Positions 57,639 to 62,626 of a stretch of DNA of 64,000 nucleotides are shown here, in pieces. The DNA is taken from contig CANIBL010000004.1 in the NCBI GenBank assembly GCA_947466225.1, forward strand, positions 2,408 to 66,407. Direction: 5' to 3'. A program made the position numbers and the translations under genes. Origin of the DNA: Deltaproteobacteria bacterium. Its GTDB lineage: Bacteria > Bdellovibrionota_B > Oligoflexia > Oligoflexales > Bog-1112. Every line of letters starts with the position of its first letter. The first letter of the stretch is position 1. The notes beneath the pieces are model-generated. The model made no database searches and was not told the origin of the DNA. It worked only from the letters and a program-made list of their open reading frames with translations.

Positions 57639-58232
57639 ATGAAGAAATTGGCATTTTTTGTATTTTGTTTTGCGCATGTTCCGGCGTTATTTTGTGATGA
57701 ATGGTGGGTTCATCATATAGAATCAGATGGTCTGGGGATTACAGAGGCTGAGATAGAAAATATACTTTCTTTAGAGGACAATGCGGCCTTTCCTTTTGAG
57801 GCGGAATTTGAAGCCATGATAAGGGAAGGTCACCAGCGAGACAGCGGTTTCTCCTCACCTCCTGAATCTGAGAAAGGGCTGCAAGTTGTCACAGAGTCAT
57901 ATAAACAGAATACACCACGGAAAGCGACGCGGAGTCGTCGTGCATCGAAGCGATTTACACCTGTCGCCTTGAGTACCATTGCCGAGTCACGCGATGAGGC
58001 AGATGTTCCGCTTACGAAAATTACGAAAAATGAAAAAAATCGAGTGGCAGCAAAGCGACATCGGGACATAAAAAGAGCCAAAAAGAAAGAAGCTGAAAAT
58101 CACCTTACAGCACTTCATGCACGAAATGTAGAGCTAAAAGCCTTTCTAGCAGTACAAATGCGAGCGGTAGAAGAAATAAAAAAACAGGTGCGGCAGTTGA
58201 TCGAACTTCAGCAAACTGAAGACCCGATATAA
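57639..58232 (+). CDS. Signal-peptide-bearing bZIP-domain protein
   Basis: MKKLAFFVFCFAHVPALFC; acidic region; DSGFSS; basic region KNRVAAKRHR followed by heptads including LHARNVELK. Confidence 0.75.
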   Translation: MKKLAFFVFCFAHVPALFCDEWWVHHIESDGLGITEAEIENILSLEDNAAFPFEAEFEAMIREGHQRDSGFSSPPESEKGLQVVTESYKQNTPRKATRSRRASKRFTPVALSTIAESRDEADVPLTKITKNEKNRVAAKRHRDIKRAKKKEAENHLTALHARNVELKAFLAVQMRAVEEIKKQVRQLIELQQTEDPI

Positions 58233-58234
58233 AT

Positions 58235-61200
58235 CTACAAGGACCTTCGGTACTCACCCCCCACTTCAAAAAGAGTCTCGGTAATTTCTCCCAATGAGCA
58301 ATGCCGCACTGTATATAATAACTCTTCAAAAATATTGTGATTTTGAATCACCGCTAGTCGAAGACGTTGTAAGGCGTTGTCTCGCTCCCCCTCGTGTCTC
58401 TTTTTAAATGCGATCAAGTTCTGTCGCTGTTCTTCTTTCTCTGCATACGAACTGCGAATCAAGCTGGTGGTCTGTCGTAGAGCGCCACTTTGTCCTTGAG
58501 CTGGATCTAAATACGTATTGACGCCGATGAGGGGCAATGCACCTGAGTGCTTTAGCTCCTCGTAGTACAAGCTTTCCTCCTGAATTTTATTGCGTTGGTA
58601 CTGGGTTTCCATGGCACCAAGGACGCCACCTCGAGTGGAAATTTTTTCAAATTCTTGCAGTACCGCTTCTTCCACAAATTCGGTTAGATGCTCGATAAAG
58701 AAGGAGCCTTGGTTTACATTTTCGCATTGATTGAGACCAAACTCTCGATTGATGATGAGTTGGATCGCCATGGCCCGTCGCACACTCTCTTCGGTGGGTG
58801 TCGTAAGCGCTTCGTCATAGGCGTTGGTGTGCAAGGAGTTGCAGTTGTCATACAGTGCCATAAGGGCCTGTAACGTAGTGCGAATGTCGTTGAATGCCAT
58901 CTCTTGGGCATGAAGTGACCGCCCGGAGGTTTGAATGTGGTACTTCAGTTTCTGGGAACGCTCTTGGCCCTTATACAGATCCCGCATAGCGATGGCCCAA
59001 ATGCGACGGGCGACGCGGCCCAATACGGCATATTCTGCATCGATTCCATTGGAAAAAAAGAAAGCCAAATTGGGTGCAAATGCGTCGATGGGCAACCCGC
59101 GTGCAAGGTAATACTCCACATAAGTGAACCCATTTGCCAAGGTGAAAGCCAACTGGGTAATGGGATTGGCACCAGCTTCGGCAATGTGATACCCGGAAAT
59201 CGACACGGAGTAATAATTGCGAATCTTGTGATCCACAAAATAGGCTTGCATGTCCCCCATCATTTTAAGCGCAAATTCAGTGGAAAAAATACACGTGTTC
59301 TGTGCCTGGTCTTCTTTTAGGATATCGGCTTGTACGGTGCCCCGTACCACTTGTACCGTTTTTTCTTTGATTTCGGAAAACTCTTCTTGCGTAGGAACTC
59401 GATTCTCTGCAGATACGAACGCATCCACTTGTTGATCGATGGCAACTGAAAAAAACATAGCCAGCAAAATCGGGGCCGGTCCGTTGATGGTCATACTCAC
59501 GCTGGTTTTAGGGTCACATAAGTCAAACCCTTGATATAAGCGCTTCATATCGTCCAAATGGGCGATAGATACCCCGGCTTCGCCTACTTTACCGAAAATA
59601 TCCGGCCGCTGGTGCGGCTCCGCTCCATAGAGGGTCACGCTATCAAAGGCTGTACTCAGGCGTTTGGCTGCCTCATCTTGGCATAAAAAATGAAACCGTT
59701 TGTTGGTGCGAGCGGGGCCGCCTTCTCCTGCAAATTGCCGTTTTGGGTCTTCTTCGTTACGGCGAAAGGGAAAAATCCCCGCTGCAAAAGGAAAGGAGCC
59801 GGCCAGATTTTCTGTCAATAGAAAGCGAGCGATTTCACTTTTTCGTTGATAGGTAGGTGGCATCACCTTGGGAAAAGTCGATTTAGAGAGGGTTTCAAAG
59901 GTACTGGGTACGCGAATTTCTTTGCCTCGTACCCAGAAGGGAAATGTAGATTCGAAGTAAGTAGCTTTGAGAGTAGCCCAGTTTTCGAGAGTTGTAAGAA
60001 GCATTGGGTCAATCTGGGCGTGCAACGATTCGATCTTTGTGTCGAGTTCGGTGCATAGATCCTCTTCTTTTAGTAAGCCGCGCGCTTCTTGTAAACTCTC
60101 CAGTTGAGAAATCAAGGTAACTTGTTCGAGGCTTTTTTTCTTATAGCTTCGTACTGCATCTGTAATTTGAGAGAGATAGTGAGCTCGATGATAGGGAATC
60201 AAGGCTTCGCGCTGTGTCGAGGCCGGGGCACTGGCACGAGAGAAAGCCGGAGGTTGTTTCCAAACAGCACCGTAGCGTTGTAAGTGAGCCACCATGGATA
60301 AATAGAGACCATTGGTCCCATCATCGTTGAAACGACTGGCGATAGTACCGAATACAGGGTAGGTAGCTTGGGCTTGTCCGTGGAAGCGACTGCGGCGAAG
60401 GGTGGTTTGCACGGCAAGCAGTGCATCCTCCCCTTGGGGCCGCTCGTACTTGTTCACCGCAATCCAGTCAGCAAAATCCAGCATGTCGATTTTTTCCAAC
60501 TGGGTAGAGGCCCCATATTCGGGGGTCATGACGTAGAGACTGCAATCGGAGAGATCCAAAATGCCCGTGTCTGCTTGGCCGATTCCGCTTGTTTCCAGGA
60601 CGATGAGATCAAAAGGCTGGGTGCGAAGGTAGGCTACCGCAGCAGCGCAGGTACGAGAGATCTCTTTGCCCGATCCCCGACTGGCAAAGCTCCGCAAAAA
60701 GATGCGTTCGTTGCGAGCGGCATTGACGCGCATACGATCGCCGAGGAGGGCGCCACCGGTTTTTTTCTTCGTGGGGTCTACGCAGCAGACGGCAATGCGC
60801 GCGGTTGGGAAGTCTTGGAGAAAGCGCAGGAGAAGTTCGTCTACAAGAGAACTTTTTCCCGCACCGCCAGTACCCGTAATACCTAGAATGGGGGGGGCGG
60901 AAGCTGAGGGCGCAGCATGAGGATCCAATGGTGGTACTGCACCGCTCTCTAGCAAGGTTAGATGCCGGGCCAATTGGGCCTCCGCTGGCACTTCTTGGCT
61001 ATGGGGGGCTGTATAGGCGAAGTCGGATAGAGACAGGATATGCCCGATAATCCCTTGTAGCCCCATTTGCTGACCTTCTTCGGGGGTATAGATCCAGGCG
61101 ATTTTCTCCCGTTCGAGGTATTCTTTTTCTTCTAGAGAGATGACACCTCCGCCGCCGGCAAAGATGCCGATGCGCTCTCCACCGTGAGTATTGAGCAGCT

Positions 61201-61540: not shown

Positions 61541-62626
61541 CTACTGGGATATTTTGGCTAAAATGACGGAAACATCATCTCGTGTCCCGCACCAATCGTT
61601 GCTTGCATTTGATGGTGCCATTTCTGCTAGGGCCTTTGACACTTCCGACATTTTTGGGTTTTGCTCATATTGAGTTAAGACAAGGCTTCTTATCTGATTA
61701 TTTGTAAGGTGCTCCACATGGAGCCTCGCTTGATCCTGCTCTTCTGCAGACGGGTGTTCTACTTCGTCATCTGAATCTACAGGTTGAGGGCATGGGCGTA
61801 GGACTATATTATATTTTTTTGCAATGCCCTCAAACAATCCATCCGAAGCGGCCAAAAGGAAAACAGGGCCGGCAATATCGGCAATATCCACAACGGCAAT
61901 GGTTGGTTCAGCGTAGGATTGGAAAAGCCTTTCCTCATAGCGTTCCTCAGTAGAATGGTTTGTTGAAGAAGACAGAACAGAGTGAATTACTTCCCGATCC
62001 CCAATGGAGCGGGACATTGCAAGTGAAGCACCAAATCTCCAGCCACCACGATAGTGGAATATAATAGCTGATGAAAATTTACCACTAGGAAAACCCATGG
62101 CTGCATCCAGTCGAGCTTTTTCTACAAGTGAACATGCCGTATGATCACTTGTTTCATAGAGGCTTTGGTTTTCCGGGGTAAAAACCAATATCCGGGAGTC
62201 TCCCGCATGGGCCACTATGATTTTTCGTTGTTTTTTCATGTAATATGCAACCGCAGCAGTAGAACCCTGTTTTGGGTACTTTTCTGATTTTGCATGAAAC
62301 CAAAAGAAAGCCTGTTGTAGAGCTGTCTGTATTTTTGCTTCAGAGGCTGTCTCTCCAGATAGTATTGCTTCAAGCTGTTGCATAAAGCCATTCGCCAGCA
62401 TATCGGATACCTGCTCCCCCCCATGACCATCAAAAACGGCAAATACTGAATCCTCTCCGATGTCGCCCAGTAGGAGCCGATCTTCATTGTGATTTAGTGT
62501 GGGATCTGGTTTTTTGGTATTTATAATTGTATGGGTAGCGGCCTCTATCAGCTTCTCTGCTGTTGCAGCATGGAGCGTTGTAGATAGGTGGAACATAGTT
62601 GAAAGGCACCAAAATATACGCTTCAT
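61541..62626 (-). CDS. PP2C/PPM Ser/Thr phosphatase with signal peptide (eukaryote-like motifs)
   Basis: NEDR, VFDGHGG, GSTA, AHAGDSR, DH...EKAR, LAMSRSIGD, AASDGLF, RDDVSV; N-terminal MKRIFWCLSTMFHLSTTLHA. Confidence 0.88.
   Translation of the reverse strand: MKRIFWCLSTMFHLSTTLHAATAEKLIEAATHTIINTKKPDPTLNHNEDRLLLGDIGEDSVFAVFDGHGGEQVSDMLANGFMQQLEAILSGETASEAKIQTALQQAFFWFHAKSEKYPKQGSTAAVAYYMKKQRKIIVAHAGDSRILVFTPENQSLYETSDHTACSLVEKARLDAAMGFPSGKFSSAIIFHYRGGWRFGASLAMSRSIGDREVIHSVLSSSTNHSTEERYEERLFQSYAEPTIAVVDIADIAGPVFLLAASDGLFEGIAKKYNIVLRPCPQPVDSDDEVEHPSAEEQDQARLHVEHLTNNQIRSLVLTQYEQNPKMSEVSKALAEMAPSNASNDWCGTRDDVSVILAKISQ

Follow-up and report, generated by a model that had tools for sequence, protein, structure and literature searches.

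A predicted secreted bZIP-like protein and its narrow family in a bacterium of the Oligoflexales

The window analysed here is a stretch of 64,000 nucleotides from the genome of an Oligoflexales bacterium (GenBank assembly GCA_947466225.1, contig CANIBL010000004.1, positions 2,408 to 66,407). It contains a gene (57639..58232, forward strand; ATG start, TAA stop), the only long reading frame at that place, for a protein of 197 amino acids with an N-terminal segment resembling a signal peptide and a C-terminal domain resembling the basic leucine zipper (bZIP) of eukaryotic transcription factors. We give a probability of about one half to the reading that this protein is a Sec-exported, host-directed bZIP mimic that acts as an effector. 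Our computations establish a real gene, a domain of the bZIP type, an export-like segment at the N-terminus, a narrow and expanded family, and markers of host dependence. A preliminary description of the same DNA had proposed a secreted mimic of ATF4 or Jun whose lifetime in the host is set by a beta-TrCP degron. All the sequence features that it named are where it placed them, and its interpretation is supported in part.

We refer to the window's genome as G000, to that of a sister species as G001, and to members of the protein family by labels of the type P0001 (P0002, P0003, P0004, P0009 and P0010). Sequence searches covered 5.8 billion proteins and 1.84 billion cluster representatives.

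The bZIP-type domain

We are highly confident that the C-terminal 70 residues are a bZIP-type domain, of which the copy in the window is a divergent member. The basic region (58023..58091, forward strand; residues 129-151) has a net charge of +8 and aligns with those of NFIL3 and C/EBPbeta. It contains the signature NRVAAKRHR, from N134 to R142 (N-x7-R), with AA at +3/+4 (N-x2-AA-x3-R). The leucine zipper follows directly (58092..58208, forward strand; residues 152-190). Counted from R142, with the first d position at R+10, the residues at d are A, L, L, Q, I and L, and those at a are K, L, N, L, V and V. The Asn at the third a position, N163 (R+21), aligns with the zipper Asn of NFIL3 and with that of C/EBPbeta, and the register is the same as in the aligned NFIL3, C/EBPbeta and Jun chains. 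The preliminary description had reported the N-x7-R signature, the d positions and an Asn at a, and all three were as it said.

The predicted structure, modelled as a monomer, is in keeping with a bZIP domain. AlphaFold2, run on a 10-sequence alignment, placed the basic region and the zipper in a single continuous alpha-helix (58005..58217, forward strand; residues 123-193). The block-mean pLDDT was 94-98 over residues 131-180 and 92 over residues 181-190, and it was below about 55 N-terminal of the helix. Foldseek, with the model as the query, returned one PDB match (E 6.5), which is uninformative, as expected for a lone helix plus disorder.

The preliminary description had suggested a comparison with the Pfam bZIP models. 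The outcome was divided: the window protein is sub-threshold, whereas two of its relatives pass the cut-offs. The window protein matched bZIP_1 with 18.2 bits (E 0.0028; gathering cut-off 27.6) and bZIP_2 (PF07716) with 16.2 bits (E 0.011; cut-off 22.3), and reached neither cut-off. It matched bZIP_Maf with E 0.049 and had no better match to any non-bZIP family. The paralogue from the same genome (P0009) scored above the cut-offs for both bZIP_1 (PF00170; 33.3 bits) and bZIP_2 (28.2 bits), as did the orthologue of that paralogue (P0010), with 47.2 bits for bZIP_1 (E 2.5e-12) and 28.5 bits for bZIP_2.

Comparison with the PDB gave the same picture. Alone, the window protein found NFIL3 as its best match (E 0.08), with ATF4 at E 1.2. 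A profile of eight family members gave 46 matches at E <= 1, and 39 of these, including the top 17, were bZIP domains. The best was C/EBPbeta (6mg3, E 4.7e-6), and the others came from NFIL3, Jun, CREB, ATF2, Fos/FosB, ATF4, C/EBPalpha, GCN4, Zta and Pap1. The seven matches outside the bZIP class were 6iak, 7lv8, 11lx, 36za, 5gwm, 5x9x and 1jk0. With P0010 as the query, all 13 PDB matches at E <= 0.01 were bZIP chains (Jun, JunD, C/EBPalpha, C/EBPbeta, Pap1 and CREB).

The positions that the family retains best include those of the bZIP signature. In an alignment of 10 members, R142 is invariant and seven positions are at least 90% conserved (F7, L125, E132, N134, R135, A138 and L166), and members outside the clade of the window protein are only 20-25% identical to it. 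What the members have in common at their core is thus the signature by which bZIPs contact bases, together with one d position of the zipper. Such matches are also rare in related genomes. In six-frame translations, bZIP_2 at E <= 1e-4 was found in 1 of 95 genomes of the order and bZIP_1 at E <= 1e-5 in 1 of 131 genomes of the phylum; at these thresholds there was no match in 14 control genomes. On this evidence the resemblance to bZIP domains is greater than expected by chance.

Members differ in the residue that precedes the invariant Arg (H, Y, N, R, S, H, N, H). In the aligned C/EBPbeta, NFIL3 and Jun chains this residue is Ser, whereas the present family has His, Tyr or Asn, with His in the window protein. 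Other bZIPs have Cys there. Variation at this position would fit a diversification of target sites.

The N-terminal, acidic and middle regions

The protein is probably exported from the cytoplasm. Residues 1-19 (57639..57695, forward strand) resemble a signal peptide: MKK is followed by a hydrophobic stretch of 16 residues that ends in ALFC, at C19, with a best 12-residue Kyte-Doolittle mean of 2.06. A segment like the signal peptide of the preliminary description is therefore present, with two Lys before the core. Eighteen of the 19 positions are invariant in three orthologues. A hydrophobic segment after K/R is present at the N-terminus of each of the nine family members examined for it, and all 10 members begin with a signal-peptide-like segment. 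Signal-peptide calls in this work rest on a crude rule that flags 366 of the 1826 ORFs of the genome. A lipoprotein signal was considered and rejected: the residue preceding Cys19 is Phe, which we take not to form a lipobox.

An acidic, aromatic-rich segment comes next (57696..57836, forward strand; residues 20-66). Its net charge is -12, and it resembles an acidic activation domain, in agreement with the activation-like segment noted before. AlphaFold predicted two short, low-confidence helices within it (residues 36-48 and 52-64), and part of the segment can be aligned with the paralogue.

The middle region (57837..57992, forward strand; residues 67-118) is the best-conserved part of the protein. 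Among three orthologues, 48 of its 52 positions are invariant, the highest proportion of any segment, and the region is predicted to be disordered. It includes a basic run, PRKATRSRRASKRF (residues 93-106), and a TP motif; the pattern K/R-[FY]-TP is common to the window protein and the paralogue. The stretch PRKATRSRRASKRFTP (57915-57959, residues 93-107) is near-invariant and has an RRxS motif and a TP motif, which resemble sites for eukaryotic basophilic and proline-directed kinases, respectively. Basic runs like nuclear localisation signals had been noted before and lie at residues 93-106 and 129-151. It is conceivable that these two clusters serve as such signals.

The family, its genomic setting and probable host dependence

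We found few relatives of the protein. The searches returned only the protein itself, the orthologues P0002 (83% identical) and P0003 (82%), the homologue P0004 (43%) and two proteins of the sister species. There were only two matches among the 1.84 billion cluster representatives, both from the family itself, and thus no close eukaryotic donor in that set. Scans of genome contigs and of metagenome contigs gave no relative of the window protein. The identical protein is recorded on three contigs, and three close orthologues are 82-84% identical overall.

The family is expanded within its genus. A search for paralogues, as the preliminary description had advised, gave one in the window's genome and four copies in the sister species. 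The window's genome has exactly two bZIP-like members. The second, P0009 (G000:C8, 168 aa), aligns with residues 6-175 of the window protein, near its full length, at 26% identity (E 8e-8), and its orthologue P0010 is 78% identical to it. The sister species has four tandem bZIP-like genes (C19:2418-5185, locus L100) for proteins of 184, 222, 207 and 144 aa, all with an N-terminal hydrophobic segment. The fourth copy keeps N-x7-R, and its "basic region" is acidic (…EDNAADAIDKR); such a protein could act as a natural dimerising inhibitor, that is, as a dominant negative. Genes for a kinase and a PP2C phosphatase also flank this tandem array.

The distribution is narrow. Only 2 of the 16 genomes of the bacterial family matched the family profile, both from one genus, and the other 14 had no match. 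The locus in the window is not syntenic in the sister species; the neighborhood in a distant relative (L017) was different, a comparison that is not informative. In the sister species, the orthologous gene for a flavin adenine dinucleotide (FAD)-dependent enzyme (91% identical) has upstream of it, in place of a bZIP gene, two paralogous genes for putative secreted proteins without a Pfam match (G001:C67 60-1440, locus L101). The complete protein from this locus has 288 aa, and in its longest ORF a signal-peptide-like hydrophobic stretch begins near residue 45. The position next to the FAD gene thus has the look of a slot in which genes for different secreted proteins can stand. The linker at residues 119-128 (2/10 invariant) and the basic region (11/23 invariant) are the parts that change most between the three close orthologues. 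Narrow distribution, expansion, mobility within the genome and rapid change make up a pattern typical of host-interaction genes, although relaxed constraint may also account for it.

The genome has markers of dependence on a eukaryotic host. The assembly comprises 2.12 Mb in 70 contigs, with 48% GC and an estimated completeness of 93%. It encodes three full-length TLC ATP/ADP translocases (C10:36990-38432, C12:849-2279 and C21:22729-24162). Translocases of this type are tied to obligate intracellular bacteria and plastids. They are present in all 16 genomes of the bacterial family, compared with 0/79 in other families of the order. Ubiquitin hydrolases of the USP type are distributed similarly, with 12/16 genomes of the family and 1/79 in the rest of the order. 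Taken together, the TLC and USP proteins are strong genomic hints that the bacterium depends on eukaryotic cells. Six flagellin genes, one FHIPEP gene and one gene for an ankyrin protein were found as well, and the combination of TLC proteins and flagellins suggests a motile clade that may draw nucleotides from eukaryotic cells. There are four secretins and genes of the GspF/PilC type, one pair of which adjoins two of the secretins. The genus as a whole is made up of flagellated, Oligoflexales-like bacteria whose genomes are small and encode ATP/ADP translocases and putative secreted ubiquitin-specific proteases.

Several other proteins encoded in the window have signal-peptide-like N-termini. 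A USP/UCH protein of 399 aa (38184-39380, reverse strand; PF00443, E 7.7e-44) has a signal-peptide-like N-terminus, and a second USP gene is present on G000:C46. A USP protease with a Sec signal is sensible only if Sec-exported proteins reach the host cytosol, and this supports, without proving, the same route for the bZIP proteins. The gene adjoining that for the USP protein (37380-38123, reverse strand) encodes a 248-aa protein with a dermatopontin domain (PF14704, E 2.5e-16), which is known from proteins of the animal extracellular matrix. A 680-aa protein of the GH85 endo-beta-N-acetylglucosaminidase type is encoded at 13750-15789 (forward strand; E 2.7e-34); enzymes of this class cleave the N-glycans of eukaryotic glycoproteins. 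Both proteins have a signal-peptide-like N-terminus. In addition, there is a Pkinase gene at 41730-43016 (forward strand; E 3.6e-20), whose product has an N-terminus like a lipoprotein or secretion signal (…LVGC…), and a PP2C phosphatase gene at 61544-62626 (reverse strand).

The immediate neighbors of the bZIP-like gene are ordinary bacterial genes, on a contig of > 66 kb. Upstream, 182 bp away, is a divergent gene for an FAD-dependent oxidoreductase, whose closest named relatives (60-64% identity) are in metagenome-assembled genomes labelled Oligoflexales, Oligoflexus sp., Pseudobdellovibrionaceae or proteobacteria. Downstream is a convergent gene for an IcmF-type methylmalonyl-CoA mutase fusion protein of 1072 aa. 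Only 2 bp separate its stop codon (58235-58237) from that of the bZIP gene (58230-58232), which leaves no space for a terminator between the two. A terminator scan gave six terminator-like sites (shuffle mean 1.3), none of them at the 3' end of the bZIP-like gene. The one promoter-like site in a promoter scan was inside the ORF, and no direct repeats flank the gene. The GC3 of the two bZIP-like genes of this genome is 35-36%, at the 4th-5th percentile of 1826 crude genes (median 48.5%). The preliminary description had raised contig chimerism. We looked at this and rejected it, given bacterial genes at 182 bp and 2 bp on a contig of this length; the gene is bacterial.

Proposed action and alternatives

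The steps that follow are a proposal built on the sequence data: we infer passage through both bacterial membranes, delivery, import into the nucleus, dimer formation, binding to DNA and an effect on the host. The protein would be exported by Sec and cleaved near C19, leaving a mature protein of about 175 residues. Its acidic segment would be followed by a conserved, basic, disordered linker and then by a basic DNA-contact region continuous with the leucine zipper. It might leave the bacterium by a type II-like system or in vesicles, enter the eukaryotic host cell, and be imported into the nucleus by means of its basic clusters. There the zipper could form homodimers or pair with host bZIP proteins having the same Asn at an a position; this Asn favors partners with Asn at the same position. 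The dimers might bind bZIP-type half-sites, or the protein might titrate host bZIPs, and host transcription would be altered in either case. The acidic segment could activate genes, or heterodimers with host bZIPs could instead interfere with their function. We regard the chances that the protein acts on host nuclear transcription as about even. A wider proposal, which we advance with somewhat less confidence, is that this genus of flagellated, energy-parasitic bacteria came to possess, by acquisition or by its own evolution, a diversifying set of Sec-secreted bZIP mimics that would enter eukaryotic nuclei, pair with each other or with host bZIPs, and reprogram transcription. Such a family of bZIP effectors would be the first from bacteria.

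Several observations weigh against this reading. The first zipper d position is Ala, a weak heptad, and the fourth is Gln. The window protein itself is below the Pfam gathering score (18.2 vs 27.6 bits). At E <= 0.1 only four of eight family members match bZIP_2 and two of eight match bZIP_1, and both P0004 and the fourth copy in the sister species match no Pfam family at E <= 0.01. Loose matches are common: at E <= 1, six-frame translations of all 14 control genomes match bZIP_1, one of them above the cut-off. The language-model look-alikes of both proteins from the window's genome are eukaryotic bZIP_2/bZIP_1 clusters, with scores of 0.89-0.90 that serve as leads only; shuffled proteins reach such scores 4-10 times in 100. 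The statistics of conservation are thin, with 10 known members. The basic region is among the least conserved parts of the three close orthologues, which could reflect relaxed constraint rather than diversification. As for export and delivery, the signal-peptide rule is crude (366/1826 ORFs flagged), Sec delivers protein only to the periplasm, a type IV system of the VirB4 type was not found in the genome, and the single FHIPEP gene goes with the six flagellin genes.

Some of these points would fit a different reading, in which the protein is an exported coiled coil that binds DNA or other polyanions outside the host nucleus. It might bind extracellular or released host DNA, coat the bacterial surface or act in the lumen of a vacuole, and the helix would be no more than a basic dimeric clamp. 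The signal-peptide-like N-terminus predicts an extracytoplasmic location, no host-cell injection system was identified (no VirB4, and an FHIPEP gene that belongs with flagellins), and the basic region varies among close orthologues. We nevertheless consider this reading unlikely. The base-contact residues N134, A138 and R142 are conserved at 20-25% identity, which a non-specific binder would not require, and an acidic segment (-12) before the domain fits the layout of a transcription factor better than that of a surface coat. Other secreted proteins of this bacterium, such as the USP deubiquitinase, need access to the host cytosol.

The protein might also regulate the bacterium's own genes. 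The hydrophobic segment would then be an uncleaved anchor or be unused, and the helix would bind the bacterial chromosome. DNA-binding regions like bZIPs have been reported in bacterial cytoplasmic proteins, and a preprint on Myxococcus FrzCD contains the term once. The arrangement of charges argues otherwise. Lys-Lys precedes the hydrophobic core and Asp/Glu follow it, and the positive-inside rule, an established basis for such placements, puts the C-terminal part outside the cytoplasm. In addition, the other 14 genomes of the bacterial family lack these proteins, and within the genus both the number of copies and their location vary, which is unusual for a housekeeping regulator; no other genome among the 131 of the phylum has a bZIP_1 match at E <= 1e-5. 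A role in the bacterium's own regulation is therefore quite improbable.

The preliminary description had favored a mimic of ATF4 or Jun with a lifetime in the host controlled by SCF-beta-TrCP, which would recognise DSGFSS once phosphorylated. The motif is exactly where it had been placed (57840..57857, forward strand; residues 68-73), in a stretch predicted to be disordered (pLDDT below 50 over residues 63-91). All three close orthologues have a form of it (DSGFSS, DSGISS and DSGVSS). Moreover, DSGxxS occurred in only 0.067% of 200,000 shuffles of the mature protein, for a motif chosen after the fact, and the genome engages the host ubiquitin system through its USP proteases. However, the retention of DSGxxS says little, because the orthologues are 82-84% identical and 48 of the surrounding 52 residues are invariant. 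Outside this trio, with its identity of 82% or more, DSG becomes DSA: P0004, at 43% identity, has DSALSM, and P0009 and P0010 of the paralogue clade have DSASEK, and the four copies in the sister species have no counterpart of the motif. The Gly of DSGxxS is critical for binding of beta-TrCP. DSGxxS is also present in 12 of 1826 crude ORFs of the genome, and the earlier caution that six residues could arise by chance was apt: the motif is not convincingly above chance.

The conserved element is an Asp-Ser in an acidic context rather than a beta-TrCP site, although such a site is conceivable for the clade of the window protein. The relationship to ATF4 and Jun did not hold up either, as the best structural relatives by sequence are C/EBPbeta and NFIL3. 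ATF4 has a DSG phosphodegron upstream of its C-terminal bZIP, and the window protein resembles it in having a DSG-type motif ~60 residues upstream of the domain. The match in sequence is weak, however (E 1.2 for the window protein alone; E 0.0053, 24th of 46 PDB matches, for the profile), and DSG is lost in distant family members. Regulation by a beta-TrCP degron is improbable, and the full proposal of an ATF4/Jun mimic timed by it is more doubtful still. Nuclear entry and timing by ubiquitination are both pure conjecture.

An artefact, either a chance coiled coil or a eukaryotic fragment misassembled into a bacterial contig, is largely refuted: the window protein alone is below the Pfam cut-off and loose bZIP_1 matches are common in six-frame translations, but two relatives pass the cut-offs, the profile finds bZIP chains almost exclusively (on which grounds we rejected a chance coiled coil), bacterial genes flank the gene at 2 bp and 182 bp on a contig of > 66 kb, the identical or a near-identical protein is on several independent contigs, and two genomes of the genus have a second locus and a tandem array.

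A host-directed bZIP mimic can be compared with several known systems. The bZIP domain is commonly seen as an invention of eukaryotes (and viruses). The family shares with eukaryotic bZIPs of the C/EBP and PAR/NFIL3 groups the N-x2-AA-x3-R signature, heptad Leu that continue directly from it, an Asn at an a position, a single helix of ~70 residues, an acidic segment N-terminal of the domain, and the same register in the matches. It differs from them in being encoded by a bacterial gene with a signal-peptide-like segment, in the Ala at the first d position, in the sub-threshold Pfam score of the window protein, and in that no close eukaryotic donor was found.

The nearest functional precedents are viral bZIPs and the bacterial nucleomodulins that bind DNA, such as TAL effectors. 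Chains of Zta (BZLF1) of Epstein-Barr virus (EBV) are among the PDB matches of the profile (E 0.21-0.73), and further viral bZIPs include MDV Meq, HTLV-1 HBZ and KSHV K-bZIP. The likeness is that of a bZIP in a parasite of eukaryotic cells that rewires host transcription, often by heterodimerising with host bZIPs. Viral bZIPs, however, are synthesised within the host cell and do without an export signal, whereas the bacterial proteins would have to pass the membranes of both bacterium and host. The bacterial effectors known to affect host transcription have other modules, for example TAL repeats, SET domains and ankyrin repeats. TAL effectors of Xanthomonas and Ralstonia and the HsvG/HsvB proteins of Pantoea enter the host nucleus, bind DNA and activate genes, according to a review of nucleomodulins (PMC7819608). 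The logic proposed here is the same, that of a bacterial DNA binder acting in the host nucleus. TAL effectors use 34-residue repeats and are injected by a type III system, whereas the present protein has a bZIP module and a predicted Sec-type export signal. Neither "bzip" nor "leucine zipper" occurs in that review, and papers that contain both "leucine zipper" and "nucleomodulin" are, by their titles, not about such a protein. In the literature searched, which is that outside subscription journals and supplements, we found no report of a bacterial bZIP effector.

If the reading of the protein as an exported, host-directed bZIP mimic is true, the family would be a new class of host-transcription mimic. 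It would also offer a compact and testable example of molecular mimicry, in a protein of 175 residues for which DNA-binding and reporter assays should be easy. Finally, it would flag a little-studied, Oligoflexales-like family of bacteria, with TLC translocases in 16 of 16 genomes and with secreted USP, dermatopontin-domain and GH85 proteins, as living off eukaryotic cells.

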